From an uncultured Chloroflexia bacterium (GTDB lineage Bacteria > Chloroflexota > Dehalococcoidia > SZUA-161), in NCBI GenBank assembly GCA_963847595.1, contig CAWKAJ010000001.1, positions 601,258 to 665,257 on the forward strand: a stretch of DNA of 64,000 bases. The letters run 5' to 3'. Positions 1,645 to 53,967 of the stretch are shown piece by piece. Both the position numbers and the translations under genes were made by a program. The notes below the pieces were generated by a model. The model was not told the origin of the DNA. It did no database searches and worked only from the letters and a program-made list of their open reading frames with translations. Within the stretch, counting starts at the first letter, position 1; every line of letters begins with the position of its first letter.

Positions 1645-1832
1645 TAAAGCTGCACCTTCTTCTCTGCACTGTGGCTGTCAGGCAAAATCTGCGGGGAGTA
1701 CAGAGGAGGCAATCCTTCAATGTCCGTGGGGGTAATCTCTGCAGCGATAGGAGATACCTGCGTCACAGCCACTATCGGGCTCATGGCATGCATCAAGAGG
1801 ATGTCCCGCTACCTTTACCTCTCACTCAGGGT

Positions 1833-3486: not shown

Positions 3487-3840
3487 CTCTAATTACACTC
3501 CTTTGCTACCCTAAGTTCTGCCTGGAAGTCCGTGCTAATGTCGGTGCCGCTCAGCTTGCGCCAGAGCAGACACAACTCAAATTAGTCTATACTTAGTGTC
3601 ATTCTATGTCAAGAGTAAACGTTCAAAGGCGAAGGGCAGGGCGCTTCTGCCAAGGCGGGCTCTCCCAACCTCTTTCAAGGCTCGGTCCCCAGGGAGTCCA
3701 GAGGGATTAAAAAGATATGGAGGATTGCCCTCGGCCGGTTTTTCATTGGTGGAGGATACGGTGTATCTATGTCACCCTGAGTGTAACGAAGGGTCTCTGA
3801 GATTCTTCGCTTTGCTCAGAATGACATCATAACCGGAGTG

Positions 3841-3935
3841 TGCAGAGGGGCAAAGCCCCTTTGCTGGGGGTTTGGGGGTATCCCCCAGTTTCTTAAAGTC
3901 CCCCAAGACTGGGGGATTTAGGGGGTTCAAGAAGA
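3841..3935. repeat. G-rich triple-hairpin repeat, family A copy 1 (aggggCAAAGcccct / tgggggtatccccca / cccccaagactggggg)
   Basis: Near-identical copies occur at 14858-14950, 39231-39330 and 53211-53320. Each contains three consecutive short perfect palindromes. Confidence 0.7.
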
Positions 3936-4029
3936 TGATTATAAACCTCTTCCAGGATAGTTGACGGCAATTCTATTAACACATAAAATTTATTCTAATG
4001 TCCGAATTTTACCGCGTTGTCCCGAAGTG

Positions 4030-5583
4030 ATGAGCATGGGTTCGAAGCCGCTAAGAGAGAAGCTGACAGCGCTCGACAAGATGGGCCACAGGCTCAGGCA
4101 GGGCGGCAGCCTGGCCAGAATAGAGAGACATCGCGCCAAAGGTAAACTCCTAGCGCGCGACAGGATAGAGAGGCTTCTCGACCCCGATACTTTCCAGGAG
4201 CTTGACCTCTGGGGCACCCCTATGGCTACAGGGACTCTCACCGACTATAAAAAGGGCCCTGCAGATGGCGTTGCTGTAGGCTACGGCCGGGTAAACGGAC
4301 GCCCTGTCTACGTCTGGTCGCAGGATGCCACCGTTTTCGGCGGCACCGTAGCCACAGTCCATGCCCGAAAGATAACCATGGTCATGGAGAAGGCCATACA
4401 GGCCAGGGTTCCGATTGTCGGCATCATCGACTCCGAGGGCCCGCGAATCGAGGACGCCATTCAGTATTATCGCTTCTATTCCCCCGAATCTATGGTCTAT
4501 TTTCAGACCCTGGCCTCAGGCGTAATTCCCCAGGTCTCTCTGATAATGGGGCCCTGCGTTGGCGAGATGGCCATCTCCGCCTCTTTAGCTGATTTCGTTT
4601 TCATGGTCAGGAATACCAGCCATATGCACGTAGCGCCGCTTCCTGAGCGCAAGGCTGCCGAGAAGGTGGGCAATGCCTCGGTACATGCTTACGATACCGG
4701 CTGCTGCGATGTGCTTGCTGAAGATGATGAAGAATGCCTGCGTAAATGTCGTGAGCTATTGAATTACCTGCCTTCGCATAACGCTGAGCCTGCTCCGGTC
4801 ATAGACACCGGCGACGACCCCGACCGCAGGGAGGAAGAGCTTCTGGAGATAGTCCCCTTCAATATGAAGAAGGCCTTCGACATGCACCGCATAATTTCCC
4901 TGATTGTAGACAACGGCAAGCTGTTTGAGATAAAGCAGCAGTGGGCAACCAACCTGATAACGTGTTTTGCACGGCTGGCCGGACAAACGGTGGGCTTCAT
5001 AGCCAATAACCCACAGTCCCTGGGAGGCTCCCTGACACTCGATGCTGCCGATAAGATGGCGCGCTTCGTCAGGTTCTGCGATGCTTTCAACATACCCCTG
5101 GTCTGGCTGGCAGATACCCCTGCCTTTCTGCCCGCAGTGGAAGAGGAGACCCGGGGCCTGATACGGCACGGCTGCAAAGTGGTATTCTCCAATGCCGAGG
5201 CTTCGGTGCCTCAAATCACCATCGCCATACGCAAGCTCTACGGAGGTGGAGGAGTAGCCATGCCCGGCACGACTCTGGGTGGCGACCTCGATGTGGCCTG
5301 GCCCTCTGTAGAACGCGGCCTCATGGGTCCGGAGGCGGCAGTATCCATCATCTACAGGAAAGAGCTGAGAGCCCTTAAGGACAAGGATGAAGCCGCATTA
5401 AAAGAACGGCATGCTCAGAGGGTCTTGGAGATGCAGCAGAGGCTGCGCCACCTTGAGCGCGAGTGGGGCCAAGAGTTTATCGACCCTCGTGACACCCGCC
5501 CTTTCCTTATCAAAGCCCTCAAGACATTTGCCCGCAGAGAAGAAGGCCGCCCTCCCCGCAAACACGAAAACATGCGCCTCTAA
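4030..5583 (+). CDS. acyl-CoA carboxylase carboxyltransferase subunit (PccB/MmdA/GcdA family), paralog 1
   Basis: Carboxyltransferase signature blocks (DSEGPRIEDAIQYYRFYSPES, GPCVGEMAISASLADF). Likely start MSMGSKPLREKL at 4030 or 4036. The track ORF starts further upstream at 3961. Confidence 0.88.
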   Translation: MSMGSKPLREKLTALDKMGHRLRQGGSLARIERHRAKGKLLARDRIERLLDPDTFQELDLWGTPMATGTLTDYKKGPADGVAVGYGRVNGRPVYVWSQDATVFGGTVATVHARKITMVMEKAIQARVPIVGIIDSEGPRIEDAIQYYRFYSPESMVYFQTLASGVIPQVSLIMGPCVGEMAISASLADFVFMVRNTSHMHVAPLPERKAAEKVGNASVHAYDTGCCDVLAEDDEECLRKCRELLNYLPSHNAEPAPVIDTGDDPDRREEELLEIVPFNMKKAFDMHRIISLIVDNGKLFEIKQQWATNLITCFARLAGQTVGFIANNPQSLGGSLTLDAADKMARFVRFCDAFNIPLVWLADTPAFLPAVEEETRGLIRHGCKVVFSNAEASVPQITIAIRKLYGGGGVAMPGTTLGGDLDVAWPSVERGLMGPEAAVSIIYRKELRALKDKDEAALKERHAQRVLEMQQRLRHLEREWGQEFIDPRDTRPFLIKALKTFARREEGRPPRKHENMRL

Positions 5584-5591
5584 ACCATGTA

Positions 5592-5720
5592 AATGTCATT
5601 CTGAGCTTTAGCGAAGAATCTCGGTATTTAGGCCTGCCTGCTATTTTCGTTCTTCGTGGTGCTGATTGCAGTCAGCATGACGGATTCCTGCTTACGCAGG
5701 AATCCAGTAGGCGCACAGCG
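5592..5720. repeat. composite hairpin repeat (modules tgtcattctgagc..gaagaatctc + tattttcgttcttcgtg + cggattcctgcNNgcaggaatccag)
   Basis: The same three-module arrangement recurs at 22268-22400 and, more diverged, at 42076-42250. The first module also occurs as a back-to-back inverted pair at 3776-3835. Confidence 0.6.
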
Positions 5721-14738: not shown

Positions 14739-14850
14739 AGGGGGCGACCCGCCTTCGGCGGGTCGCCCCCTTAATATGTCATTGCGAGGAGTCCGCCTCT
14801 GGCGGACGACGTGGCAATCTCCCCGAGCCCGTGTAGCGCCGTGACAGGGA
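14739..14850. repeat. repeat family B copy 1: GC hairpin (ggggcgacccgccTTCGgcgggtcgcccc) + tgtcattgcgag..ccgccNNNNggcgg..gcaatctc hairpin
   Basis: Copies at 16135-16190, 23838-23950 and 58680-58950. The first hairpin may double as the operon terminator after 14704. Confidence 0.7.
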
Positions 14851-14857
14851 GTGCAGA

Positions 14858-14950
14858 GGGACAACAGTCCCTTTGCCGGGGGTTTGGGGGTGTCCCCCAA
14901 TTTCCTTTCCTCCCCCAAGACTGGGGGATACAGGGGGTTCAAGAAGGTTG
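14858..14950. repeat. G-rich triple-hairpin repeat, family A copy 2
   Basis: gtgcagagggacaacagtccctttgccgggggtttgggggtgtcccccaa...cccccaagactgggggatacagggggttcaagaag. Confidence 0.7.
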
Positions 14951-14966
14951 CCAAACACTCCCCCCA

Positions 14967-15275
14967 TTACATGGACATTAGCGGGTACACTGCCACCTGT
15001 CCGCCATTGGCTATGACCGGACAGCCTTTAGCCAGCGCAACCGCGGCATCGAGGCTTTTAGCCTGCAATATGCTGTACCCGGTGACAGGTTTAGCTCCAG
15101 TGCTCTTGACGCCGCCTTTACCGACGATTTTCCCCGGTTGAGCCGGGGCGCCTCCATCCACGACAGCCTTGCCGAGGTCTGCGAACCATTTCATCCACTT
15201 AGCCATCGTCTTCTCGACCAGTTTCGGATCGGTTTCCATTTCGCCACCGTAGTATACCAGTAAGTATTTCCCCAT
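14967..15275 (-). CDS. YciI-like (DGPF/YCII-related) small protein
   Basis: 102 aa. MGKYLLVYYGGEMETDPKL...W..W pattern typical of YciI-like proteins. Confidence 0.55.
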   Translation of the reverse strand: MGKYLLVYYGGEMETDPKLVEKTMAKWMKWFADLGKAVVDGGAPAQPGKIVGKGGVKSTGAKPVTGYSILQAKSLDAAVALAKGCPVIANGGQVAVYPLMSM

Positions 15276-16106: not shown

Positions 16107-16190
16107 AGTAATGTAGGGGCGCACTGCAGTGCGCCCCTATAATATGTCATTGCGAGGAGTCCGCCCCAGGCGGACGACGCGGCAATCTCT
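16107..16190. repeat. repeat modules H4 (gtaggggcGCACTGCAGTGCgcccct) + family B hairpin (copy 3)
   Basis: taatgtaggggcgcactgcagtgcgcccctataatatgtcattgcgaggagtccgccccaggcggacgacgcggcaatctc. Confidence 0.7.
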
Positions 16191-23837: not shown

Positions 23838-24085
23838 AAGAGGGTGACCCGCCGAAGGCGGGTCACCCTTCATATGTCATTGCCGCGTCGTCCTTCCCGT
23901 ACGGGAAGGACGACGCGGCAATCCCCCCGAGCCCGCGTAACGTCGTGACTCTCAGACCGAACCACGACCGACGAAACGAGCAGCGCAACCCAAAGACCAT
24001 TGCCGTGAAATGTAGGGGCGCACTGCTGTGCGCCCTCTCCCAAATCCCCCCTTTTGCAAAGGGGGATACGGGGGGATTTCGCTCT
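23838..24085. repeat. mosaic of hairpin repeat modules (family B, H13 ccacgaccgacgaaacgagcagcg, H4, H5 cccccctTTTGCAAAgggggg)
   Basis: Each module has additional copies elsewhere in the window (14739-14850, 48226-48285, 16107-16133, 58499-58543). Confidence 0.7.
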
Positions 24086-25032: not shown

Positions 25033-26652
25033 CTACAGCGGAATCAGGGAATGCTTTCTCCACGGCCTCGCCGGCCCCGGACCCAGCTTTTCCCAGTGTT
25101 CCATCTTCTGGGATAGCCTCTCCAGGGCGTTGATCAGTATCGGCCGCGTCGTCCTGGGGTCGATGATATCGTCGGCGCCTTGAATCCCTGCCAGATGATA
25201 AGCTGTGGCGTACTTCTCGTGTATCTGCTCCATCAACTGACGCCGCAGCTCCTCAGGATGCTCGGCAGCCGCCAGCTCGCCCCTGTACAGCGCGTCGGCT
25301 GCTCTCTCGTAGCCCTCTATCCTGACGTCGGCAGTGGGCCAGGCGTATACGGCATCGACACCCATGCGCTCGGTGCCCATGACCATGCGGGCTGCGCCCC
25401 AGCACCTGCGTATATACACCGTGATCCTGGGCGTGGTCGCCTCGCAGATAGCGAACACCGGCTTGGCAGAGTTCCTCTCCAGTCCGTCCCTGTGCTGCTC
25501 CTGCTCCAGGCTGGGCAGGAACCCCGGGCTGTCCACGAGAGAGATTATCGGTATATTGAAGCAGTCGCAGAACCTGATGAACCGCGCCTGCTTGTCTCCG
25601 GTGTAAACATCGAGGCAGCCATCTCCGGCCGCCGGATTATTGGCTACAACGCCCACCGTCTTTCCTGCCATGCGGCCGAAGCCGATTATCATGCTGGGGG
25701 CATAGAGGGCCTGCAGCTCGAAGAAGTCTCCCTTGTCCACAATGGATGCGATGACCTTGTGCATGTCGTAGGGCTGGCTCACATCCGCAGGTACTATGTC
25801 CGAAAGATGCTCATCGGTACGGTTAGGGTCGTCGCCCGTATTAACTACAGGGGGCTTGTCTCTCCAGTTGGAGGGCAGGAAGCTGAGCAGCCTCTTGCTG
25901 GCGTCTATGGCCTCTTCATCGCTGTCCACGAGCAGGTCGTTCGAGCCGGTGACTGTGGAGTGCAGCAGCGCCCCGCCGATCTCCTCCTCGGTGACATCCC
26001 TGAAGGTAACCGCCTTCAAGATAGGCGGCGAGGCTACGGACATGAAGGCTATGTGATTGCGCATGATGACGAAGTCAGCCATTATCGGAGAGTAGGCCGA
26101 GCCAGCATAGCAGGGCCCCAGCATCAGGCTGATATGAGGCACCACGCCGGACATCAGCGGAGGATAGTACATGAACCCGCCGCCGCCGCCCACCGGGCTG
26201 CCGCGTACCGGCACCTTGAACCCGTTTCTGCCGAACAGGTCGTGGATTCTGATAGCGCCCGAGTCAATCATCCCCACCATGGGGATGCCCTCCTCCATCG
26301 CCTGTTCCATGGCCCGGGCCACCTTGCTGTTCTGAATCATGGACTGGGTGCCCGCCAGCACGGTGAAATCATGGGCATAGGAGTAAACAGTGCGCCCGTT
26401 GACCTTCCCGTAGCCCACAACCACGGCATCTCGGGGCAGCTCCCGATCATCTACATCGAAGCCGGTCTTCATCGCCTGCGTCCACAAGCCTATCTCATGA
26501 AATGTGCCGGGGTCGAAAAGCCTCTGAATCCTCTCCCAGGCCGTCAGCTTGCCTCGACCGTGCTGTTTATCTATCGCAGTCTTATCTCCACCGGGTAGCC
26601 AATGTTTCCTTTGCTCCTCAACCTTTTGCAGCTTTGCCTTCGCGTCAGCCAT
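25033..26652 (-). CDS. acyl-CoA carboxylase carboxyltransferase subunit (PccB/MmdA/GcdA family), paralog 2
   Basis: 539 aa. Two crotonase-like CT halves are conserved (GMIDSGAIRIHDLFG, GPCYAGSAYSPIMADF). Confidence 0.88.
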   Translation of the reverse strand: MADAKAKLQKVEEQRKHWLPGGDKTAIDKQHGRGKLTAWERIQRLFDPGTFHEIGLWTQAMKTGFDVDDRELPRDAVVVGYGKVNGRTVYSYAHDFTVLAGTQSMIQNSKVARAMEQAMEEGIPMVGMIDSGAIRIHDLFGRNGFKVPVRGSPVGGGGGFMYYPPLMSGVVPHISLMLGPCYAGSAYSPIMADFVIMRNHIAFMSVASPPILKAVTFRDVTEEEIGGALLHSTVTGSNDLLVDSDEEAIDASKRLLSFLPSNWRDKPPVVNTGDDPNRTDEHLSDIVPADVSQPYDMHKVIASIVDKGDFFELQALYAPSMIIGFGRMAGKTVGVVANNPAAGDGCLDVYTGDKQARFIRFCDCFNIPIISLVDSPGFLPSLEQEQHRDGLERNSAKPVFAICEATTPRITVYIRRCWGAARMVMGTERMGVDAVYAWPTADVRIEGYERAADALYRGELAAAEHPEELRRQLMEQIHEKYATAYHLAGIQGADDIIDPRTTRPILINALERLSQKMEHWEKLGPGPARPWRKHSLIPL

Positions 26653-26687: not shown

Positions 26688-28232
26688 TTACAATCTGATA
26701 TTTTCGTGTTTGCGTAGAGGCCTTCCCTCATCCCTGCTGGCAAATGTCTTCAGCGTCTGTATCAGGAAGGGTCTGGTGTCCCTGGGGTCGATGAAGCCCT
26801 GTCCCCATTCACGCTCCAGGGCCCGCAGCTTATGCCTCATCTCGACAGTCCGCTGTTCCAGTTTTTGCGCTCTCGCGGCTTCATCCTCGATGGCAGCGAG
26901 CTCCCTCCGGTAAATAATGGATACCGCACCCTCCGCTCCCATCAACCCGCGCTCCACAGAGGGCCAGGCCACGTCAACGTCGCCTCCCAGCGTCGTGCCT
27001 GGCATGGCCAACTGCCCGCCTCCGAAAAGCTTCCGTATAGCGATGGTTATCTGAGGCACGGTGCACTCGACATTGGAGAATACCAGCTTGCAGCCATGCC
27101 TGATAAGTCCTCTGGTCTCCTCATCGATGGCAGGCAAAAAGGCCGGGGTATCCGCCAGCCAGACCACGGCTATGTTGAAGGCATCGCAGAACCTGACGAA
27201 CCGCGCCATCTTATCAGCCGCGTCCAGGGTCAGCGCGCCGCCCATGGACTGGGGATTATTAGCTACAAAACCTACCGTCTCTCCGGCCAACCTGCCGAAG
27301 CCGGTTATCAGGTTGTTCGCCCACTGCCGTTTCAACTCCAGGAACTCGCCCTTGTCCACTACCAGCGAGATCAGCTTGGTCATACTGTACGGCTTATTTG
27401 TATCGAGAGGAGCCACGCTCAAAAGCTCCTCTTCCCTGCGATTGGGAGGGTCGCCGGTGTCCACCACAGGCGGCTTCTCCTTATTATTTGAGGGCAGGTA
27501 ACTCAGCAGCTTGCGGCAGTTCTCTATACACTCATTGTCGTCCTTGGCCAGGAAATCGCAGCATCCCGTCTTGCGGAAATGCCCCGAAGGATCGCCTGTT
27601 TCCTCGGAGGTCTTGCCCTGAGGCGGTAATGCTATGTGCATGTAGCTGGTCTTTCTGACCATGAACACGAAATCGGCCAGGGAGGCGGAGATAGCCATCT
27701 CGCCCACGCACGGCCCCATAATCAGAGAGATTTGGGGGATCACACCCGAGGCCATGGTCTGGAAATAGACCAGAGATTCGGGAGAGTAGAAGCGATAATA
27801 CTGAATGGCATCTTCGATTCTGGCGCCCTCGGAATCGATAATGCCCACGATAGGGATACGGGCATGGATGGCCTTCTCCATTGCCCCTGATATCTTGCGA
27901 GCATGGATGTTAGCCAGTGTCCCGCCGAAAACGGTGGCATCCTGCGCCCAGACGTAGATAGGGCGTCCATTTACCTGACCATATCCTACGGCAACGCCGT
28001 CTGCGGGGCCTTCCGTCTTATCGATATCGAACGCCGTAGCCATAGGCGTGCCGAACAGGTCAAGCTCCTGAAAAGTGCCGGGGTCGAGAAGCTTCTCAAT
28101 CCTCTCCCGCGCCGTGAGCTTCCCTTTCTTATGCTGCTTTTCAACCTCAGCGGGGCCACCGCCCTGCCTCAACTTGCCCCTCAACTCATCAATCTCGGAA
28201 ATCTTCTGTTTCATCATATCCAGATCGCTCAT
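26688..28232 (-). CDS. acyl-CoA carboxylase carboxyltransferase subunit, paralog 3 (close paralog of 4030-5583)
   Basis: 514 aa. Long blocks are identical to paralog 1 (IPIVGIIDSEG.RIEDAIQYYRFYSPES, GPCVGEMAISASLADFVFMVR). Confidence 0.88.
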   Translation of the reverse strand: MSDLDMMKQKISEIDELRGKLRQGGGPAEVEKQHKKGKLTARERIEKLLDPGTFQELDLFGTPMATAFDIDKTEGPADGVAVGYGQVNGRPIYVWAQDATVFGGTLANIHARKISGAMEKAIHARIPIVGIIDSEGARIEDAIQYYRFYSPESLVYFQTMASGVIPQISLIMGPCVGEMAISASLADFVFMVRKTSYMHIALPPQGKTSEETGDPSGHFRKTGCCDFLAKDDNECIENCRKLLSYLPSNNKEKPPVVDTGDPPNRREEELLSVAPLDTNKPYSMTKLISLVVDKGEFLELKRQWANNLITGFGRLAGETVGFVANNPQSMGGALTLDAADKMARFVRFCDAFNIAVVWLADTPAFLPAIDEETRGLIRHGCKLVFSNVECTVPQITIAIRKLFGGGQLAMPGTTLGGDVDVAWPSVERGLMGAEGAVSIIYRRELAAIEDEAARAQKLEQRTVEMRHKLRALEREWGQGFIDPRDTRPFLIQTLKTFASRDEGRPLRKHENIRL

Positions 28233-38166: not shown

Positions 38167-39210
38167 ATGGCCTTTAAAGCGGTTGACATCCTGGGAATAT
38201 CCATGCTGCAGGACTATGCCAAGATGTTCAAAGATGCCGGGGTAGACGTTGAACTTGTGGTAAACGCCTGCCCTCTGGGGCCCACCGAGGACGAAATCAT
38301 CGCCGCAGCGAAAGATGCCGATGCTGTGATTGCGCAGGTTTCCTACCAGTGCCTTACCAGAAAAGTTCTGAGCAACTTGAAGACGTGTAAGTTAATTACC
38401 AGCATTGGCATTGGTTACGAGAATATAGATGTAGCAGCAGCCACTGAATTCGGTATCATGGCTGCCAACGTACCGGATGCCAACATAGAAGATGTGTCAG
38501 ACCATACCATGGGGCTTATACTGGCCTGCACCAGGCGGATTGTGCAGTTAAATAACGTCGTTAAAAAGGGAGGCTGGACCTCAGTAGCCTCTCCCCAAAT
38601 CATCGGAGATGTATGGCCGCATCTATCGAGGCTGAGGGGGCAAACTCTGGGGCTTATTGCCTTCGGCAAAATTCCGCGAGCTTTGGTACCCAAGGCCAGG
38701 GGCTTCGGGCTGAAGATTATGGTCTACGACCCCTACCTGCCGCCAGATATAATCCGCAGGTTCGATGTGGAACAGGTAGACCTGGACCGGTTGCTTGCGG
38801 ATTCCGACATCGTTTCCATACATACGCCGTTGACCGCGGAGACGAAACATATCCTGGGACTCAAGGAATTGAAGAAGATGAAACCCACCGCTTGCCTCAT
38901 CAATACCGCTCGCGGCGGTGTCGTTGACCATAAGGCGCTGTACACAGCCTTAACCAAAGGATACATTGCCGCAGCAGCCTTCGATGTCACCGAACCGGAA
39001 CCAATCAATCCGGATAACCCCTTGTTGAAGCTGGATAACTTCATCGTAACGGCCCACTCCGCTGGCCTGTCGCCACAGGCTCTCGCCGAAATGCAGCGCC
39101 GTCCCGGCGAGGAAATCATCAGGGTGGTTCAAGGTAGATGGCCCTTTGGGTTGGTCAACCCCGAGGTCAAAACCAAGTTCATCAAAAAGTGGGGGAAAGC
39201 TCTCAAGTAA
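38167..39210 (+). CDS. D-isomer-specific 2-hydroxyacid dehydrogenase (NAD-binding)
   Basis: About 347 aa with the 2-Hacid_dh pattern (GLIAFGKIPRAL...HTPLT...NTARGGVVD...TAHSAG). The start is set at MAFKAVD (RBS GGGAGG). The track ORF begins at 38101. Confidence 0.85.
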   Translation: MAFKAVDILGISMLQDYAKMFKDAGVDVELVVNACPLGPTEDEIIAAAKDADAVIAQVSYQCLTRKVLSNLKTCKLITSIGIGYENIDVAAATEFGIMAANVPDANIEDVSDHTMGLILACTRRIVQLNNVVKKGGWTSVASPQIIGDVWPHLSRLRGQTLGLIAFGKIPRALVPKARGFGLKIMVYDPYLPPDIIRRFDVEQVDLDRLLADSDIVSIHTPLTAETKHILGLKELKKMKPTACLINTARGGVVDHKALYTALTKGYIAAAAFDVTEPEPINPDNPLLKLDNFIVTAHSAGLSPQALAEMQRRPGEEIIRVVQGRWPFGLVNPEVKTKFIKKWGKALK

Positions 39211-39230
39211 CCGTGTCGTTTAGGAACTGA

Positions 39231-39330
39231 GGAGTCCAGAGGGGCTTTGCCCCTCTGGTGGGGGCCTGGGGGTATCCCCCAGCCTTAAAAGTCCCCCAAG
39301 ACTGGGGGATTTAGGGGGTTGAAAAGTGTC
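39231..39330. repeat. G-rich triple-hairpin repeat, family A copy 3 (within operon, between dehydrogenase and ferredoxin)
   Basis: ggagtccagaggggctttgcccctctggtgggggcctgggggtatcccccag...cccccaagactgggggatttagggggttgaaaag. Confidence 0.7.
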
Positions 39331-39368
39331 GCTAAATGCTCTCTCAAGTAACCGTTTTAGGGGGAAAC

Positions 39369-39599
39369 ATGGCTAAAGGTGAAATAACAATTAACGAAGC
39401 GGTTTGCAAAGGGTGTGGCTACTGCGCCAAATTCTGCTCCCGTGGGGGCATCGTGATGTCCAAGGATAAGTTCACACCCAAGGGTTATCTTCTCCCCACC
39501 TTCGCCAATCCCGAGAAGTGCAACGCCTGTGGTATTTGCGGCTGGATGTGCCCCCGCTTCGCTATCGAGGTTTATAAATACGTCGACGCGCCTTGTTGA
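39369..39599 (+). CDS. 2x[4Fe-4S] ferredoxin
   Basis: 76 aa with two CxxCxxCxxxCP motifs (CKGCGYCAKFC, CNACGICGWMCP). Confidence 0.85.
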   Translation: MAKGEITINEAVCKGCGYCAKFCSRGGIVMSKDKFTPKGYLLPTFANPEKCNACGICGWMCPRFAIEVYKYVDAPC

Positions 39600-39683
39600 C
39601 CATCTAAGCCAGCTACGATGACGATGCTGGAATCCTCTCTTTATATCCCTTAGTGGCTCAGCGCACTTACGGAGGGTTCAAAC

Positions 39684-40127
39684 ATGAGAAGTGTGGAGTT
39701 GACCGTCACCATCAAAGCACCCAGGGACATAGTTCTCAGGGAGATCTCGGAATATACCCATCCTCCGATACTCCACAAGCGCGTGATAAAGTCAGTCCGG
39801 GTGCTTGAGGATGCTAACAACGTCAGCGTCGCGCTGTGGCGACTTAAGGTGCTCGGATTCACACGCTCGGCGAAGCAAAGGCAGACTGTAATTCCGCCTG
39901 ACCGGATGACGAACGAGACTATCGAGGGATTCGCCAAGGGCACTTTGGAGAGCACCTCTCTCCAAGAGACAGGCGACACTACCGTAATTGTGGACAGGGT
40001 GGACGTGCGGGTGCCCTCTTGGGGTAAGCTGCTGGAGATACCGGTAGCCTGGTATACGAAGCGCCTGACTCTGGGAATACTTATGGACCATAAGAGAGAC
40101 CTGGAGTCTAGAAGCACATCCAGGTGA
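39684..40127 (+). CDS. SRPBCC (Bet v1/START-like, polyketide-cyclase-like) ligand-binding domain protein
   Basis: 147 aa. MRSVELTVTIKAPRDIVLREISEY resembles the N-terminus of SRPBCC family members. Moderate confidence. Confidence 0.45.
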   Translation: MRSVELTVTIKAPRDIVLREISEYTHPPILHKRVIKSVRVLEDANNVSVALWRLKVLGFTRSAKQRQTVIPPDRMTNETIEGFAKGTLESTSLQETGDTTVIVDRVDVRVPSWGKLLEIPVAWYTKRLTLGILMDHKRDLESRSTSR

Positions 40128-42506: not shown

Positions 42507-43574
42507 ATGAGAAAAGTCTTGTGGAGCGTACTTGTCGTAGCACTATTGCTGACTATGCTGGTATCAGGGAGCTCGTGCAGTAAGACGGCCTCTGTGACGG
42601 CGACGCCAACGCCAACACTCACCCTTACACCAACACCTGCACCTGCAATTACATCTACATCTACACCAACGCCAACACCCAAGTCGACTTCCACGCCTAA
42701 GGCCGCACCAGTCTCTGGCTGGAGCGCCATGAGCAGCAGCACCCACTCAGTCCTTTATAGTGTCTGGGGCAGTTCCTCCTCCGACATCTTCGCGGTCGAT
42801 GAAGATGGAGGTATCCAGCACTACAACGGCAAGACCTGGAGCACCATGTACACCAGCACCATACAGTACCTTTATGGTGTCTGGGGCAGCTCTTCCTCCG
42901 ATGTCTTCGTTGTGGGGGGAGCTAATGGCGATATCCTGCACTATGACGGCAGCGCCTGGAGCACCATGCACACCGGCTTCCTAGTCTACCTTCATGCTGT
43001 CTGGGGCAGCTCCTCTTCCGATGTCTTCGCCGTGGGGGATGGTGGCACCATCCTGCACTACGACGGAAGCGCCTGGAGCGCCATGACTAGCGGCACCGAC
43101 GAAGGTCTTGATGGTGTCTGGGGCAGTTCCTCCTCCGATGTCTTCGCCGTGGGATGGGATGCGTCGACTAACAATGGTATCATCCTGCACTACGACGGAA
43201 GCGCCTGGAGCACCATGACCGGCGACACCACGAACTTGGTTTTGTATGGTGTCTGGGGCAGCTCCTCCTCCGATGTCTTCGCCGTGGGATCCCCTGGATT
43301 GAGTCAGTCAACTGAAAATACAACTATCCTGCACTATGACGGCAGCGCCTGGAGCACCATGAGCGGTGGCAGTATAAATGGCCTGCAGGGAGTTTGGGGC
43401 AGCTCCTCCTCCGATGTCTTCGCCGTGGGGGGAAGTGGCGCTATCGTGCACTATGACGGCAGCGCCTGGAGCGCCATGAATAGCGGCACCGAAGAGTCGT
43501 TTAATGGTGTCTGGGGCAGTTCTGCCTCCAATGTCTTCGCCGTGGGGAGTGATGGCATTATCCTGCACTATTGA
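42507..43574 (+). CDS. secreted beta-propeller repeat protein (BNR/Asp-box, Ycf48-like) with Thr/Pro-rich linker
   Basis: Signal peptide and a TPTPTLTLTPTPAP linker. Nine to ten tandem units of the form GVWGSSSSDVFAVG..G.ILHYDGSAWS.M. HYDGSAWS fits the Asp-box x-D-G-x-x-W. Confidence 0.75.
   Translation: MRKVLWSVLVVALLLTMLVSGSSCSKTASVTATPTPTLTLTPTPAPAITSTSTPTPTPKSTSTPKAAPVSGWSAMSSSTHSVLYSVWGSSSSDIFAVDEDGGIQHYNGKTWSTMYTSTIQYLYGVWGSSSSDVFVVGGANGDILHYDGSAWSTMHTGFLVYLHAVWGSSSSDVFAVGDGGTILHYDGSAWSAMTSGTDEGLDGVWGSSSSDVFAVGWDASTNNGIILHYDGSAWSTMTGDTTNLVLYGVWGSSSSDVFAVGSPGLSQSTENTTILHYDGSAWSTMSGGSINGLQGVWGSSSSDVFAVGGSGAIVHYDGSAWSAMNSGTEESFNGVWGSSASNVFAVGSDGIILHY
42750..43570 (+). repeat. tandem DNA repeats of about 117-130 bp encoding the propeller blades
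   Basis: Stretches such as cagctcctcctccgatgtcttcgccgtgggg and atcctgcactacgacggaagcgcctggagc recur nearly verbatim. Confidence 0.75.
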
Positions 43575-43756: not shown

Positions 43757-43960
43757 TCGAGCCCCCGGAATAAAACCCTCTCTCCGATAGCCCCTGCGGG
43801 GTCTCATTCTCGAGGCAGGGCAAGGGAACCTCGTTCCTGCACTCGTCGTGGCTCCCGTCACAACGAGTAGGGGCACAGTGCACTGTGCCCTCGCCCAATT
43901 CCCCTTTTGTAAACTTGTCCCTGACTCGTTCAGGGAGGGGGCAAGAGGGATTTAAACCTC
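43757..43960. repeat. mosaic of hairpin modules (H11 ccggaataaaaccctctc..., H4 gtaggggcACAGTGCACTGTgccc, H5 cccctTTTGtAAAc...)
   Basis: H11 has a second copy at 50100-50180. H4 and H5 have copies at 53150-53178, 58892-58918 and 59210-59270. Confidence 0.65.
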
Positions 43961-43963
43961 CGA

Positions 43964-45898
43964 TCAGAGGACAGCCAGGAGCTTCCGTTTCTCTAGGTCA
44001 TCTGCCACTTCGGCGAGCCCCAGCTCCTCGAGCTTTGTCCTCGTTTGCAGACCGGTGACGACATCCCATCCCCTAAGAGGATAATACTCGTCCTTCATCC
44101 CTTCGAATCTCTCCCGCTCGACTACCGCTCCCTTTCGTGAGATTACCTCACCATCCTTCCCCGGTGCCAGGCATTCGGGGTTCAGGGTGCCGAACTTGAG
44201 CGGTTTTGTGTAGAAAGGCTCGGGGAGCACGTCATCTTCCCTTCCTCGATGACCTTCCCTGACCAGTATGGCCCTCTGCAGATTGAAAACCCGTTCACCG
44301 ATCCGGTAAAGACCCTGCTCGTCTACCTCTCTTCCGGTAACCGCGGAAAGAAGCTTGCTTTCAACACCGGGGTCTCCGACGTGATCCTCCGAATGTCTGA
44401 CCTGTGTAATCGGCCACAGTACATCGCAAAGAATCAGACTCTCTTTCGCATAGGCTCGGTCTTGGATCTTTGTTGTGGCCAGGGCTTTGCCGTCATAGGT
44501 AGAGAAATCAGCGGCAAGCTCACCCCCCCAGAACCTCCTTGCGATTTTGCGGAAGGCCTCACTGGAGAGGTAGGAGCCCTCAACCTTGTTAGCCCAGTTC
44601 AGCCAATCGAACAGAGCAATGCCCACCTCATGAAGCTGGTGCATAGGCAGCGTCGGTTCCATAGCGTACATCAAACCTGATACAATGTACATTCTCGGAC
44701 AGTATGCCGAAATCCGCCCTGCTTTTGAAACGTAGTCAGTGATTAGTTCCTGTGATCCCTTTCCCACAGAATCCGCCGCCTTGACGAGGCCCTGTGCCAG
44801 GATTTCGCCGAAACCCTCTCTGAATGTGATCTTCCTTAGCAATGTCTCTATGAATTCGAGGCTCCCCAGCTTGGATATAGGTATCCCGATACTCTCGTCA
44901 TCCAGGATACCGGCTTTATAGCACCTGGACAGCCACGCAATCAAAGTGTGAACCGGATACACATCAAGGCCATAGCCATCGCAGAGTACTGTCGCCAGGA
45001 ATGGGACCTCGTTCACTTCGCCGTAGTGTCTCACCGCCCACTCGTGATAATAGACCGCAGAGCCGCAGAAGAACTTGTGCCGCGTTCCATCTTCAGTGGC
45101 CCGGGTGGCCCTGATGCAGCCGCTTCCACCGATGCAGCCATAGCATGGGTCCAGCTTCATCTCAGTATCTGTCGTCGGTCTTTCGTCGTGCAGCGTTGAG
45201 AAGCCGGTCTTCAGTTCATGGACATATCTCCTCAGTTCCTCAAGTTTCTTCGGGTTGGCTGCAGTCGCTTTCTTTGAACCCCTCACAGCAATGGCCTTCA
45301 GCTTCTTGGCGCCCATAACCGCCCCAAAGCCATTGGAACCGCTGGCATCGTTATCAGCAATAAGGCCGGCAAAGGTTACCATATTTTCACCTGCAGGTCC
45401 GCAGGCTACCACCCTTGCGGAGCTTCCGAGCTCTGTTTTCAGCGTCTCTCGCGCCTGAACTGTGCTCTGGCGCCAGAGGGTGGACGCATCTCTGATCTCG
45501 GCGACACCATCCTGGATGGACAGATAGACTGGCCTGTCAGATTCCCCCTTAATCACAATGCCGTCATAGCCTGCGAATTTAAGTTGGGCCCCCCAGCTGC
45601 CGCCCATATTGGTATAGGAGAAGTGCTCGGGGTTGGTCGCCGGTGATTTTCCGCAAACGGTCCACCTGGAACCAGCGATACCGGAGAAGCCTGCAAGCGG
45701 CCCGGTCATGAACAGGAGCCGGTTCTCAGGATCCAGGGCGCCTGTCTGTGGTGATACCTCATCCCAGTAGATCTTGGCAGCAATGCCCCTGCCGCCCAGA
45801 AACCTGTCGGCGTAGTCTGCCGTGGGCAGATCCGTCGTGCTCCCCGAGCTTAGATCAACCTTCAGGATCTTTCCGGCATATCCATATTGCACTGCCAT
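43964..45898 (-). CDS. aldehyde:ferredoxin oxidoreductase family tungsto/molybdo-pterin enzyme (AOR), paralog 1
   Basis: MAVQYGYAGKILKVDLSSG...DRFLGGRGIAAKIYWDEV N-terminus is typical of the AOR family. About 644 aa. RBS AAAAGGGG. Confidence 0.9.
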   Translation of the reverse strand: MAVQYGYAGKILKVDLSSGSTTDLPTADYADRFLGGRGIAAKIYWDEVSPQTGALDPENRLLFMTGPLAGFSGIAGSRWTVCGKSPATNPEHFSYTNMGGSWGAQLKFAGYDGIVIKGESDRPVYLSIQDGVAEIRDASTLWRQSTVQARETLKTELGSSARVVACGPAGENMVTFAGLIADNDASGSNGFGAVMGAKKLKAIAVRGSKKATAANPKKLEELRRYVHELKTGFSTLHDERPTTDTEMKLDPCYGCIGGSGCIRATRATEDGTRHKFFCGSAVYYHEWAVRHYGEVNEVPFLATVLCDGYGLDVYPVHTLIAWLSRCYKAGILDDESIGIPISKLGSLEFIETLLRKITFREGFGEILAQGLVKAADSVGKGSQELITDYVSKAGRISAYCPRMYIVSGLMYAMEPTLPMHQLHEVGIALFDWLNWANKVEGSYLSSEAFRKIARRFWGGELAADFSTYDGKALATTKIQDRAYAKESLILCDVLWPITQVRHSEDHVGDPGVESKLLSAVTGREVDEQGLYRIGERVFNLQRAILVREGHRGREDDVLPEPFYTKPLKFGTLNPECLAPGKDGEVISRKGAVVERERFEGMKDEYYPLRGWDVVTGLQTRTKLEELGLAEVADDLEKRKLLAVL

Positions 45899-45997
45899 CT
45901 CGCCCCTTTTCATCTTCCCGTGATTATCCGCAACTTAATGCGAACTTATACGATTATCTACCGGCCTCGCTGGAGCTAATAAGCACAGGCCGGCATC

Positions 45998-47950
45998 TCA
46001 GGGGACAGCGATGAGTTTCCGTTGCTCTAGGTCCTGTGCCACCTCGTTGAGCCCCAGCTCCTCGAGCTTCTTCCTCGTCTGCAGGCCGGTGGCAGCGTCC
46101 CACCCTCTTAGCTGATAGTATTTGTCCTTCATCCGCTCGAATTCGGTTCTGTCGACAACCTCACCTTTCCGTGAAATTACTTCCCCGTTCTTTCCCGGCA
46201 AGAGGCACTCAGGGTCGTGGACGTTTGTTTCCAGGGGGGTATTGAAGTAGACCTCCGGAAGCACATCGCTCTCCCTTCCCCTGTGACCTTCCCGGACCCG
46301 TATGGCTCTCTCCAGATTGAAAATTACCTCTCCCATCCTGCGGAGCCCCTCCTCGTCCACCTGTTTTCCAGTTACTGCTGATAGGAGCTTGCTTTCAAGT
46401 GCCGGGTCGCCCACATGGTGAGCCGAGTTCTTGACCGTCATTATCGGGAAGACGTATATGCAGAGAATCAGGCTTGCGATTGCAGACTCGCGATCCTGGA
46501 CCATCTTGGCAGCCAGGGCTTTGCCGTCATAGGTGGAGAAATCCGCGGCGATCTCGCCCCCCAGGAACTCTCTGGCTACGGCGCGCCATACGTCGCTCGT
46601 AACATATGCTCCTTCATCCTTGTGGACCCAGGCCAGCCATCCGCTTAGAGGCTTGATTGTCTCCGCATACTGGTATCTAGCCACTCTCGGTTCCATAGCA
46701 TGGAAAAACGCTATTGGTGAGAAGAGCCTGGGGTCTCCGCCCGGGGGCTCTTCAGCTTTGATGGTGTGTTCGGTAATCATTCCTTCAAGCAGCTCCTTTG
46801 ACCCCCCGCCCACTACGTTGGCAGCGCGGGCTATTCCCAGGGCAAGGGTATCTCCAAAGCCCTCCCTCAGTGATATCTTCTTCACCAGAGTTTGAATAAA
46901 CGCAAGACTCCCCTTTTCAGATATAGGAATGCCTGTACCTTCATCTGTCAGAATGCCCGCTCTCCGGCATCTCCGGAGCCAGGTAATCGATGTCGCGATA
47001 CCGAAAGCATCCAGTCCGTAGTCATCGCAGAGCTTGGTGGCAAGGAACGGCACCTCATTAGCCTCCCCGTAGTATTTGTGGGCCAGCCCCTGATAGAACA
47101 TCGAAGAGCCGCACATGAATTTCCCTTTGGTGCCATCCGATGCTTCGTAGGTTTCTCGCCAGCAACCGTTGCCCCTGCAGCCATAGCAGACCTGTTTCTT
47201 CATGTTCGGGCCGGGTGGAAGTCCCCTGAGAATCATTGTGAGTGGCAGCGGCCCGCCGCTGGTATACTCGCGAATGATATCCGCGAGCTGTCGAAGGCCC
47301 TCCGGATTGGCCGCAGTTGGCCTGTTGCCGCCTCTGACCACGATGGCCTTCAATCTCTTGGAGCCCATAACAGCTCCGAAGCCCCCTGAACCGCTGGCGT
47401 CCTCATCGGCCAGAAGACTGGCAAAGAGCACCCCATTCTCGCCGGCGGGGCCACAAGCCACAACCCTCACCGAGCTTCCCAGTTCCCTCTTTAGAGTGTC
47501 GCGCACCTCGAAGATCCCCTTGCCCCATAGGGCCGAGGCATCCCTCAACTCAATAGTGTCATTCTGTACGAAGAGATAGACCGGTTTGTCCGACCTGCCC
47601 TGGACCACGATCCCGTCATATCCGGCAAGCTTGAGTTGGGCACCCCAGCTTCCCCCAAGATTGCAGGTGCAGAATTGCTCCGGGTTGGTGACCGGTGATT
47701 TTCCGCAAACTGTCCACCTGGAGCCCGATACCCCGGGAAACCCCGCGAGCGGCCCGGTCATGAACATTAGCCGGCTTTCAGGATCCAGGGCGCCTGTCTG
47801 CGGTGAAACCTCATCCCAGTAGATCTTGGCGGCGATGCCCCTTCCGCCTAGAAACCTGTCGGTGTATTCTACTGTTCTCACGTGTGTTATTTCGCCGGAG
47901 GGTAAGTCCACCCTCAGGATTTTTCCGGCATATCCATATCGCGCTGTCAT
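45998..47950 (-). CDS. aldehyde:ferredoxin oxidoreductase family enzyme, paralog 2 (tandem with paralog 1)
   Basis: MTARYGYAGKILRVDLPSGEITHV...DRFLGGRGIAAKIYWDEV. About 650 aa. Confidence 0.9.
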   Translation of the reverse strand: MTARYGYAGKILRVDLPSGEITHVRTVEYTDRFLGGRGIAAKIYWDEVSPQTGALDPESRLMFMTGPLAGFPGVSGSRWTVCGKSPVTNPEQFCTCNLGGSWGAQLKLAGYDGIVVQGRSDKPVYLFVQNDTIELRDASALWGKGIFEVRDTLKRELGSSVRVVACGPAGENGVLFASLLADEDASGSGGFGAVMGSKRLKAIVVRGGNRPTAANPEGLRQLADIIREYTSGGPLPLTMILRGLPPGPNMKKQVCYGCRGNGCWRETYEASDGTKGKFMCGSSMFYQGLAHKYYGEANEVPFLATKLCDDYGLDAFGIATSITWLRRCRRAGILTDEGTGIPISEKGSLAFIQTLVKKISLREGFGDTLALGIARAANVVGGGSKELLEGMITEHTIKAEEPPGGDPRLFSPIAFFHAMEPRVARYQYAETIKPLSGWLAWVHKDEGAYVTSDVWRAVAREFLGGEIAADFSTYDGKALAAKMVQDRESAIASLILCIYVFPIMTVKNSAHHVGDPALESKLLSAVTGKQVDEEGLRRMGEVIFNLERAIRVREGHRGRESDVLPEVYFNTPLETNVHDPECLLPGKNGEVISRKGEVVDRTEFERMKDKYYQLRGWDAATGLQTRKKLEELGLNEVAQDLEQRKLIAVP

Positions 47951-48039
47951 CTCGCTCCTTTTCCCAGGATATCTAGAGGGTAGCATGCGCCCATCTGACT
48001 GTCAATCAGCCTCGTCGGTTCATTGTGCCACAAACACTG

Positions 48040-53141: not shown

Positions 53142-53149
53142 AGGTATCC

Positions 53150-53380
53150 CTGTAGGGGCACAGTGCACTGTGCCCTGTAAGTCTCCCAAGACTGGAATTA
53201 ATGGATTGTTACTGAAAGGGGAGTGCAGAGGGGAAAGTCCCCTCTGCCAGGGGTTTGGGGGTGTCCCCCAACCCCAAAATCCCCCAAGACTGGGGGACAC
53301 AGGGGGTTGAAAAGGCCTTATCGAAGACCTAGTCGATTAACAATTAGGGGAGTCCGGAGGGGAAAAGCCCTTCTGGCGGA
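53150..53380. repeat. H4 hairpin (gtaggggcACAGTGCACTGTgccct) + family A triple hairpin copy 4 + partial extra copy, within operon
   Basis: ggggagtgcagaggggaaagtcccctctgccaggggtttgggggtgtcccccaa...cccccaagactgggggacacagggggttgaaaagg ... ggagtccggaggggaaaagcccttctggcgg. Confidence 0.7.
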
Positions 53381-53388
53381 GGAATACG

Positions 53389-53967
53389 ATGCAAACAGGA
53401 TTTTATTTTGACCAGACACGGTGCACCGGCTGCTACACTTGCGTGATAGCCTGCAAAGACTGGCACGACGTGCCGGCCGGCCCGGCCAGTTGGAGAAGGG
53501 TTCTAACCATAGAAGAAGGCAAATTCCCGGATGTGTTTGTCGCCTGGCTTGCCACCTCCTGCTATCACTGCGCCAAGCCTGCCTGCGTCGCAGCGTGTCC
53601 TGCCGGAGCTATCACGAAAAGGAAAGAGGATGGCATTGTAGTCGTTGACCCGGCTAAGTGCCTGGGCAAAGACAAGTGCGACCTCTGCCTGCAATCGTGT
53701 CCCTATGGCGCTCCGCAGTTCGGGGCCGAGGTGAACGCCAAGATGCAAATGTGCAACCTATGCTTTGACCGGCTGAAGGAAGGGAAGAAACCCATCTGCG
53801 TGGCCGGATGCCCCATGAGAGCGCTGGACGCCGGCCCCATTGATGAGCTTCGAGCGCGGTATGGGGATAAGACTGAGGCCGTGGCCTTCACCTGTTCTGC
53901 CGACTTGAAGCCGTCAGTTATCTTCAAGCCCAAGCCTAGAAAGAGCGTGGTGGGGGCAAGAAAATGA
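53389..53967 (+). CDS. 4Fe-4S dicluster electron-transfer subunit (DmsB/HybA-like)
   Basis: 192 aa with several CxxCxxCxxxCP-type motifs (CTGCYTCVIAC, CYHCAKPACVAACP, CDLCLQSCP, CVAGCP). Confidence 0.85.
   Translation: MQTGFYFDQTRCTGCYTCVIACKDWHDVPAGPASWRRVLTIEEGKFPDVFVAWLATSCYHCAKPACVAACPAGAITKRKEDGIVVVDPAKCLGKDKCDLCLQSCPYGAPQFGAEVNAKMQMCNLCFDRLKEGKKPICVAGCPMRALDAGPIDELRARYGDKTEAVAFTCSADLKPSVIFKPKPRKSVVGARK

Follow-up and report, generated by a model that had tools for sequence, protein, structure and literature searches.

A G-rich element of about 130 nucleotides (nt) with three adjacent hairpins, here called family A, occurs in four full copies within a 64,000-nt stretch of contig CAWKAJ010000001.1 (positions 601,258 to 665,257; assembly GCA_963847595.1) from an uncultured member of the Dehalococcoidia. 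This whole stretch is referred to below as the window. The element is best explained as a MITE (miniature inverted-repeat transposable element), that is, a non-autonomous mobile repeat inserted between the genes of this bacterium, and we put the probability of this reading at about 0.88. Its position inside operons is the result of transposition and tolerance, not of a proven regulatory role, since copy 3 is absent from 17-nt sites in relatives, the spacer that holds copy 4 measures 10 nt in others, and the copies are scattered over unrelated sites. No report of this sequence, or of MITEs in Dehalococcoidia or Chloroflexi, came up in literature searches, and family A is a previously undescribed MITE family, the sequence being new and the class of element known.

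Insertion sites, architecture and spread

Copy 3 (39215..39343, + strand) is a complete element of 129 nt between a 2-hydroxyacid dehydrogenase gene (+) and a ferredoxin gene (+), and is the best match in the window to a covariance model of the family (136.8 bits). The 76-amino-acid (aa) ferredoxin downstream is encoded as an identical protein on six public contigs. On contigs L229, L230 and L233, only 17 nt lie between the dehydrogenase stop and the ferredoxin ATG (...AAAGCTCTCAAGTAACCGTTTTAGGGGGAAACATG), whereas the window and contig L228 have 141 nt extra at that exact point, made up of the 129-nt element and a second TCAAGTAACCGT. This 12-bp sequence occurs once in the three empty sites and twice in the window and L228. 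Its left copy in the window (39203..39214, +) contains the TAA stop of the dehydrogenase gene, and the right copy (39344..39355, +) lies just 5' of the ferredoxin Shine-Dalgarno sequence AGGGGG, with the ATG at 39369. The insertion, flanked by this target-site duplication, leaves both the dehydrogenase stop codon and the ferredoxin ribosome-binding site intact. At this one site some populations carry copy 3 and others lack it, which makes it an insertion polymorphism. Filled alleles occur in the samples ERR11594402 and ERR10755942, empty ones in SRR18214653, SRR18214612 and SRR18214623.

Copy 4 (core 53219..53316, +; arms ~53201-53328; 136.4 bits) lies between the genes for the alpha subunit of a molybdopterin oxidoreductase (+) and its 4Fe-4S (beta) subunit (+). 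In the relatives L235 and L236, whose 4Fe-4S subunit proteins are homologues with 79% and 87% identity, the alpha-beta spacer is 10 nt long, with the stop codon overlapping the ribosome-binding site, as against 247 nt in the window. L235 is a locus of the complete Dehalococcoidia chromosome CP070667.1. The longer spacer consists of a GTAG-tagged palindrome of another repeat family (GTAG-REP, described below), a hairpin-3 remnant, copy 4 and a hairpin-1 fragment. The element was also considered as the source of the beta-subunit ribosome-binding site and rejected in this role; the GGAGG before the ATG is ancestral, and the element-free L235 and L236 have GGAGAG. Exact-protein look-up of the genes beside copies 1, 2 and 4 gave no further empty sites, the records being absent or from the same strain only.

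Flanking duplications have also been detected in the wider family. In a sister subfamily found outside the window (subfamily B), a 5-bp AT-rich duplication is perfect in 18 of 49 copies and matches at four of five positions in another 14, compared with 0.4% and 5.7%, respectively, in shuffled flank pairings, and the peak of identity appears at length 5 only. In the window type (subfamily A), flush direct repeats border 13 of the 29 full-length copies versus 4% in controls; their length is not constant and ranges from 5 to 12 bp.

Alignments of full-length copies with their flanks give subfamily A a length of ~130 nt and the order 5'-GAGGTCGTTTAnnAAC, GGGGAGTG, hairpin 1, a G5 linker, hairpin 2, hairpin 3, AGGGGGTTGAAAAG and GTTnnTAAACGnCCTC-3'. 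The terminal inverted repeats (GAGGTCGTTTAnnAAC ... GTTnnTAAACGnCCTC, consensus from 29 full-length copies) are 16 nt long and imperfect; they are near perfect in L186 and L131 and degenerate in window copies 1, 2 and 4. In copy 3, where all features are on the + strand, the 5' repeat GTCGTTTAGGAAC (39215..39227) has the first three bases of the consensus absent or replaced, and the 3' repeat GTCGCTAAATGCTCTC (39328..39343), with reverse complement GAGAGCATTTAGCGAC, matches the 5' consensus at ~12/16 positions. Hairpin 1 of this copy, CCAGAGGGGC-TTT-GCCCCTCTGG (39236..39258), follows the RNAalifold consensus. Hairpin 2 (39261..39286) has an outer stem of the linker G-run paired with a pyrimidine run and, as its inner stem, the perfect palindrome TGGGGGTATCCCCCA (39267-39281). 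Hairpin 3 (39291..39310) has its core CCCCCAAGACTGGGGG at 39293-39308 and is followed by the conserved tail AGGGGGTTGAAAAG (39313..39326), a fifth G-run without a Watson-Crick partner that is invariant in alignments A1 and A2. Spacer lengths among copies differ by non-multiples of three, and the core of the element is non-coding. The three palindromes described in the initial annotation are real, except that hairpin 1 is longer than was described (GCAGAGGGG-loop-CCCCTCTGC, 9-10 bp); likewise, the positions given there covered the core, while the full element with terminal repeats extends to ~129 nt (39215-39343 in copy 3).

The covariance model, run unfiltered over the whole window, returned exactly four full copies, all on the + strand and at 116-137 bits (3813-3958, 14824-14970, 39207-39351 and 53196-53339, flanks included), and beyond these only palindromes read backwards; together with direct reading, this confirmed the four positions reported at first. 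The hairpin-3 16-mer CCCCCAAGACTGGGGG occurs exactly four times in the window. When up to three mismatches are allowed, five matches are found against 0.9 expected, a number reached in none of 100 shuffles. The copies had been called near-identical, which holds for the stems only; these are nearly invariant, while loops and spacers vary and the ~98-nt cores share 71-85% pairwise identity. Pfam matches upheld the gene contexts first given for copy 1 (a divergent gap) and for copies 3 and 4 (between co-directional genes). Copy 1 (core 3836..3935, +, 127.6 bits; degenerate terminal repeats, ~3821-3951) lies between a biotin carboxylase gene (-) and a carboxyltransferase gene (+), in sense to the latter. 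Copy 2 (14847..14963, +, 115.6 bits), composed of a core at 14847-14947 and a recognisable 3' arm GGTTGCCAAACACTCCCC, occupies a convergent gap between a saccharopine dehydrogenase gene (+) and a YCII protein gene (-) (Pfam), immediately 3' of another hairpin repeat (14774-14851).

At least four fragments accompany the full copies, all in + orientation. The partial fifth copy mentioned in the initial annotation is genuine and comprises hairpin 1 only (GGGGAGTCCGGAGGGGAAAAGCCCTTCTGGCGGAGG, 53347..53382), abutting the ancestral Shine-Dalgarno sequence of the beta-subunit gene. The others are a decayed hairpin-3 remnant read from the sequence (TCTCCCAAGACTGGAAT, 53182..53198), a 5'-part fragment (GGGAGTCCAGAGGGA, 3692..3706) with one mismatch to the head motif, which has seven matches in the window versus 0.43 expected, and a strongly decayed copy (GGGGAGTACAGAGGAGG...GTGGGGGTAATCTC, ~1692..1745) that lies between two minus-strand genes and is hence antisense to both. 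A public contig of the same strain (L234:1288-1380, corresponding to window 14875-14967) ends inside copy 2, and contigs L231 and L232 start inside copy 3. The copy-2 repeat fragments short-read assemblies, and these contig breaks are of a kind that repeats often cause.

Beyond the window, searching a single genome per species for a pattern of hairpin 2 plus hairpin 3 found at least 107 loci, all in metagenome-assembled genomes (MAGs) of Dehalococcoidia/Chloroflexota; at least 28 MAGs are represented among the 80 loci listed, the copies per MAG being numerous. In metagenomes, the pattern of hairpin 1 plus hairpin 2 gave at least 120 loci, and nhmmer detected 345 copies in 1.4 Mb of fetched sequence. 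As judged with a crude caller of open reading frames (ORFs), of the 343 copies analysed, 327 do not lie deep within an ORF (~95-98% intergenic), and most apparent coding matches are start-codon over-extensions or short spurious ORFs. The distance of copies from stop codons showed no sharp peak with the same caller. With hundreds of insertions at unrelated places between genes, in many species, the element is no gene-specific regulator.

As a class, MITEs generally measure less than 200 bp, carry terminal inverted repeats, are flanked by target duplications and have no transposase (PMC3184786). Family A is of small size (129 nt for the copy 3 insert, 123 nt for subfamily B), contains no transposase gene, shows terminal repeats, has target-site duplications at copy 3 and in both subfamilies, and exists as dispersed copies that are present at some sites and missing from others (345 copies, the empty site in L229, L230 and L233, and the 10-nt copy 4 spacer). 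All the defining features of a MITE were thus found except an identified autonomous partner. Several observations weigh against this assignment. The 1.4 Mb of fetched loci yielded no autonomous element whose terminal repeats match; inverted pairs of terminal-repeat motifs were all MITE-sized, other MITE variants or separate copies and a generic search for long-range inverted repeats gave noise only, and no transposase is present among 20 window proteins checked. No clear duplication flanks 16 of the 29 full-length subfamily-A copies, and a duplication length of 5-12 bp is unusual for one transposase. The ends of copies 1, 2 and 4 are degenerate, so that their mobility follows from family membership and, for copy 4, also from the spacer comparison. 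Conservation is higher in the internal hairpins than in the terminal repeats, contrary to what a purely selfish MITE predicts, although this apparent contrast, especially for hairpins 2 and 3, is in part an artefact of the search patterns. Finally, neighbouring copies are co-oriented beyond what gene orientation leads one to expect, which classical cut-and-paste transposition does not explain.

For a MITE, the following sequence of events can be proposed. A transposase encoded elsewhere would recognise the terminal repeats, and the element would be inserted into AT-rich spacers of short length, in many cases directly after a stop codon, with duplication of 5-12 bp. Insertions that spare the stop codon and the downstream ribosome-binding site would be tolerated, and copies would therefore end up inside operons. 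The inserted element is presumably co-transcribed and would fold into three stable G-C hairpins, which, to judge from compensatory changes, are probably kept by selection. Within the mRNA, such a structure most likely renders the insert harmless or slightly beneficial, for instance by acting as an RNase barrier or processing site; alternatively, it may be needed for the element's own spread. A regulatory reading is not needed, though it may hold, and an RNA-level effect is plausible because the hairpin structure is conserved and the orientation biased. The operon placement that had been taken as a sign of regulation is accounted for by transposition, and what survives of that proposal is a weaker RNA-level idea, carried by compensatory changes, an excess of G.U over A.C and a 76% sense orientation.

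Hairpin conservation, orientation and alternative readings

In one alternative, the element is a host-selected cis-acting RNA module for which transposition is merely the means of spread. It would serve as an mRNA stabiliser, an RNase processing site or an inter-cistron insulator, its hairpins blocking 3'-5' exonucleases or recruiting an endonuclease and so setting the ratio of upstream to downstream product. We consider this possible but doubtful. The case for it begins with compensatory conservation of the hairpins across diverged subfamilies on contigs ranging from 45% to 69% G+C. RNAalifold returned the three hairpins from 27 subfamily-A copies, in which 96.4% of cells are paired, compared with 48-66% when partners are slid, and five pairs show double changes. 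In 141 distinct metagenome copies, which were aligned to the covariance model but none of which was in its seed, 96.9% of cells are paired versus 52-66% with slid partners, and compensatory changes occur in 23 of 28 pairs (302 cells), a level reached in 0 of 500 shuffles. The closing pair of hairpin 1 covaries in both sets (GC 19, CG 5 and UA 2 in the 27 copies; GC 81, CG 34, AU 7 and UA 7 in the 141), and folding z-scores range from -2.2 to -3.8. Hairpin 3 has been swapped in relatives for longer C5...G5 hairpins of other sequence, and hairpins 1 and 3 both occur in versions of very different sequence and length; it is therefore structure, not sequence, that is kept.

The pairing tolerance is strand-specific. 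The 3' side of the hairpin-2 outer stem has C or U only, with G.U in 15-17 and G-C in 6-11 of the 27 copies, and G.U outnumbers A.C by 82:11 in the 27-copy set and by 314:28 in the 141-copy set (59:25 outside four polymorphic positions). This wobble fits folding of the G-rich strand as RNA or single-stranded DNA, but the excess could also stem from a transcription-linked C-to-T mutation bias on the coding strand. Judging by the compensatory changes, the sense bias and the co-orientation of neighbouring copies (see below for the last two), some constraint on the hairpins as single strands, probably as RNA, is likely.

Orientation is consistent with an action in mRNA. In gaps between co-directional genes, 105 copies are sense and 34 antisense (76% sense, p = 1e-9; the ORF calls behind all orientation counts are noisy), and the sole clearly antisense copy in the window (~1692-1745) is decayed. 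Precedents exist as well, since MITEs of other bacteria are transcribed, with stabilising or destabilising effects on mRNAs (PMC3733652), and the RNA structure of the Bacillus element bcr1 is kept by compensatory changes (PMC3184786). However, the sense bias could be a by-product of chromosome-scale polarity or could reflect selection against C-rich antisense RNA. In addition, copies lie beside unrelated genes and also in convergent and divergent gaps, and element-free sites function in related lineages.

A bolder proposal regards the core as a selected, portable single-strand module, most likely RNA, that sets mRNA decay or processing between cistrons and has spread through Chloroflexota on several transposon shells (TA, 5 bp and 5-12 bp) with chromosome-scale polarity. 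The element would then be a mobile cis-regulatory RNA with swappable domains and not a passive MITE, a speculative idea that we regard as rather doubtful. The module would comprise hairpin 1, the linker G5, hairpin 2 and a variable 3' part, either a C5...G5 hairpin with G5 tail or a canonical G-quadruplex motif. Among copies selected by hairpins 1 and 2, the 3' part is the window-type hairpin 3 with tail in 50 (contigs ~54% G+C), longer C5...G5 hairpins with a similar tail in 23, and the canonical quadruplex motif GGGCGGGCGGGTGGG in 27 (contigs ~66% G+C). Relatives with similar ends differ in their duplication, which may be TA, 5 bp or 5-12 bp.

The co-orientation of copies with one another bears on a further alternative, namely mobilisation of single-stranded DNA at the replication fork, as by repetitive extragenic palindromes (REPs) with their REP-associated tyrosine transposases (RAYTs) or by IS200/IS605-like elements. 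In this mechanism, which we hold to be improbable, the hairpins would be recognition signals and orientation would be set by the direction of replication. Of 86 pairs of adjacent copies, 70 share one orientation, compared with 45 +/- 5 and never more than 62 in a simulation based on gene orientation, and where neighbour and local gene conflict, 11 copies follow their neighbours and 4 the gene; yet noisy ORF calls could mask a sense bias of ~90%, which would give equal concordance. Every full family-A copy in the window, 10/10 GTAG-REPs and most hairpin repeats of another type (ATGTCATT, see below) are on the + strand. Outside the window, however, this agreement fails for the GTAG hairpins (12:1 co-oriented with family A inside, 49:43 elsewhere), so that it is unusable as a proxy for replication polarity. 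GC skew in the window tracks gene orientation and is therefore uninformative as a leading-strand marker, and in convergent and divergent gaps the majority gene strand agrees with copy orientation in 23 of 37 cases, which is not significant. The strand-specific pairing tolerance and the conservation of structure rather than sequence in hairpins 1 and 3 also suit a single-stranded DNA substrate. IS200/IS605-type elements are not known to carry terminal inverted repeats or target-site duplications, and REPs lack them (PMC3733652), whereas family A has both, and its hairpins have no GTAG/CGTC tag. The polarity may reflect transcription, replication or both.

The G-quadruplex of the G-runs, or i-motif of the C-runs, whose formation the initial annotation had also suggested is very unlikely to be the functional form in DNA or RNA. 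In its favour, the sense strand has five G-runs against three C-runs, which leaves the linker and tail G5 runs without partners. Moreover, the 27 high-GC relatives carry GGGCGGGCGGGTGGG in place of hairpin 3 and tail, and folding that allows for quadruplexes predicts one in this motif, with a gain of 17-34 kcal/mol. In window copies 1-4, by contrast, minimum-energy folding of the same kind, whose quadruplex energy models are crude, gives hairpins only, the same as in ordinary folding; two of the four usable G-runs are locked in covariation-conserved G-C stems, and the middle loop would be ~32 nt long. We give similarly little credence to the idea that a dimeric DNA-binding protein, for example a nucleoid protein or one that partners the transposase, binds the palindromes. 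Within the window type there is very strong conservation of TGGGGGTRTCCCCCA and CCCCCAAGACTGGGGG, perfect palindromes of 15-16 bp, but hairpins 1 and 3 have been exchanged in relatives for others of different sequence or length, which indicates conservation of structure. Much of the apparent sequence conservation also comes from the search patterns, as hairpin 3 is exact in only 17% of the copies chosen by hairpins 1 and 2.

A role as transcriptional attenuator, also raised in the initial annotation, is highly improbable, as is one as terminator or as a riboswitch-like element controlling the genes that follow. Stable hairpins do lie between cistrons and alternative pairings of the unpaired G-runs are conceivable, but consensus scans of 38900-39700 and 52900-53700 (copies 3 and 4) found 0 terminator-like (hairpin plus T-run) and no promoter-like sites, hairpin 3 is followed by AUUUAGGGGG and not by a U-run, the genes behind the copies are unrelated to one another, relatives lack this mobile element in the same operon, and no Rfam family was matched at gathering or permissive thresholds. 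Rfam 15 (including Chloroflexi-1) gave 0 matches in the window at the gathering threshold and chance-level matches only for copy 3 with permissive filters (E >= 0.56); in 18 related loci, it detected RNase P and tRNA-Sec only, away from the elements.

Related subfamilies and known repeat families

Subfamily B is 123 nt long in total and shares hairpins 2 and 3 and the tail with the window type, while its hairpin 1 differs (GCAGGA-tact-TCCTGC) and its ends read GAGACyGCTGAAAAAG ... CTnTTTCAGCAkTCTC. The terminal repeats of the family also enclose other cargo, including one other hairpin repeat type of this window; in L087, a ATGTCATT-type hairpin is framed by subfamily-A terminal repeats. The element at L158:303-447 (-) is a chimera that joins a 5' arm of the subfamily-A type, GATGTTTACTAAC, to a 3' end of the subfamily-B type, GACTATTTCAGCATTCTC, which implies recombination between the subfamilies. 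Short (~70 nt) and variant elements with subfamily-B ends and other internal hairpins, for example GCCCCGATTATATCGGGGC, have been observed at L032:1029-1100, L058:258 (-), L078:4318 (-) and L023:1037, and point to a modular MITE family. The high-GC relatives (L108-L227, for example L116, L120, L172 and L162) keep hairpins 1 and 2, and their hairpin 3 and tail are replaced by GGGCGGGCGGGTGGG (AAGAACCAC). Many of these copies, as judged by eye, have the ends GCAGGGTGCTGAAAAAG ... CTTTTTCAGCACCCTGC with TA on both sides, and by sequence these ends look related to those of subfamily B.

A general role of the element tail or linker as a donor of Shine-Dalgarno sequences was considered and rejected, as ~3-5 of 155 copies have AGGGGG 3-13 nt before a long ORF. 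Some 3'-truncated copies (L089:1348-1470, L095:6578-6725, L103:1527-1672 and L019) place the AGGGGG of the tail 3-11 nt before the start of a long ORF. In a few such copies the tail may, from its position, act as a ribosome-binding site, although this is rare (9 candidates among 155 copies, several of them doubtful).

Among described repeats, the closest analogue is bcr1 of the Bacillus cereus group, an element of ~155 bp with 5-bp direct repeats and a strain-variable distribution that is transcribed and has a cruciform-like RNA kept by compensatory changes (PMC3184786). Like bcr1, family A is a non-autonomous mobile repeat of similar size whose distribution is not conserved between related strains, its sister subfamily B is flanked by 5-bp direct repeats, and its predicted RNA has independent stem-loops with compensatory changes, with the difference that bcr1 is transcribed and family A is presumed to be. 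Unlike bcr1, to which it is unrelated in sequence and phylum, family A is G-rich with G5/C5 stems, has three stem-loops and a G5 tail instead of two stem-loops, and shows in the window subfamily a target duplication that varies from 5 to 12 bp.

Correia/NEMIS of Neisseria and ERIC of Enterobacteria likewise measure 100-160 bp, carry terminal inverted repeats, have target duplications and insert near or between genes, and they are co-transcribed with a stable RNA fold that alters mRNA stability (PMC3184786, PMC3733652). They form mainly one long hairpin from paired long terminal repeats and duplicate TA, unlike family A, which has three local internal hairpins, no TA duplication in the window subfamily, and neither a site for integration host factor nor a promoter seen at copies 3 and 4. 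For the Correia/NEMIS and ERIC elements, De Gregorio et al. are said to have reported cleavage by RNase III or RNase E and orientation-dependent effects.

REPs and the bacterial interspersed mosaic elements (BIMEs) built from them, for which roles in mRNA stabilisation have been proposed (PMC3184786, PMC3733652), resemble family A as G+C-rich, multi-copy intergenic hairpins in mosaics with other repeats (window 53142-53388 and 58465-59550). A REP is one palindrome of 20-40 nt that bears a GTAG or CGTC tag and has neither terminal inverted repeats nor target duplication (PMC3733652). Family A is not of this type, since it extends over ~130 nt, comprises three hairpins without a GTAG tag and has both terminal repeats and target duplications. 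No RAYT gene was seen among the 20 window proteins scanned, although no search aimed at RAYT was made. Duplication of TA is a hallmark of the IS630/Tc1-mariner superfamily, and the TA flanks at the GCAGGGTGCTGAAAAAG...CTTTTTCAGCACCCTGC ends of most high-GC relatives that share hairpins 1 and 2 recall MITEs derived from it, such as RUP of Streptococcus pneumoniae. In contrast to these, the window subfamily duplicates 5-12 bp and subfamily B 5 bp, not TA, and no IS630-like transposase was linked to any subfamily in the fetched loci. Correia, ERIC and RUP are elements of this kind with other architectures, while REP/BIME elements share only the hairpin-rich intergenic habit (PMC3733652).

Other features of the window and significance of the family

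A second repeat family in the window consists of GTAG-tagged palindromes of the form GTAGGGGC-stem-loop-stem-GCCC with varying stems. Ten copies are present versus 0.15 expected, all on the + strand (16113-16136, 24012-24035, 43867-43896, 53152-53175, 58475-58498, 58891-58914, 58975-59000, 59042-59065, 59395-59418 and 59425-59446), and some adjoin family A. They fit the GTAG-REP class, which is known from several phyla including Chloroflexi (PMC3733652). Further hairpin repeat families start with ATGTCATT(G/C)C (heads ATGTCATTSC), for example GTCATTGCGAGGAGTCCGCC...GGCGGACGACGCGGCAATC and GTCATTCCTGCGCAAGCAGGAATCC. They occur at 5593, 14776, 16144, 22269, 23874, 42042, 42078, 58677-59176 and other positions, with nearly all intergenic copies on the + strand, and the head motif has 21 matches in the window versus 7.7 expected. 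A 1.1-kb intergenic repeat island between convergent genes (58465-59550) is made up almost wholly of GTAG-REPs, ATGTCATT hairpins and short repeats.

Tandem repetition has also been observed in coding sequence. A 355-aa ORF (42507-43574, +) is composed of at least seven 117-nt (39-aa) units with 60-84% identity and has no Pfam match; it possibly encodes a repeat or propeller-like protein. Tandem paralogous gene pairs encode two aldehyde:ferredoxin oxidoreductases (43964-45913 and 45998-47986, -), with a third at 53964-55910, and two carboxyltransferases (25033-26652 and 26688-28232, -), with a third at 3961-5583.

Dehalococcoidia, most of which are uncultured, are abundant in the subsurface and have small, streamlined genomes. 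In these genomes, family A explains puzzlingly long operon spacers, in which coupled junctions of 10-17 nt have become structured spacers of 160-250 nt. The family also breaks assemblies and can seed spurious ORF calls, and it offers presence/absence markers at the strain level. If the hairpins act in RNA, the family would constitute a natural experiment in which the same structured insert is found in hundreds of operons, and such an effect would lend itself to direct tests, since sequenced samples and populations hold both filled and empty alleles.

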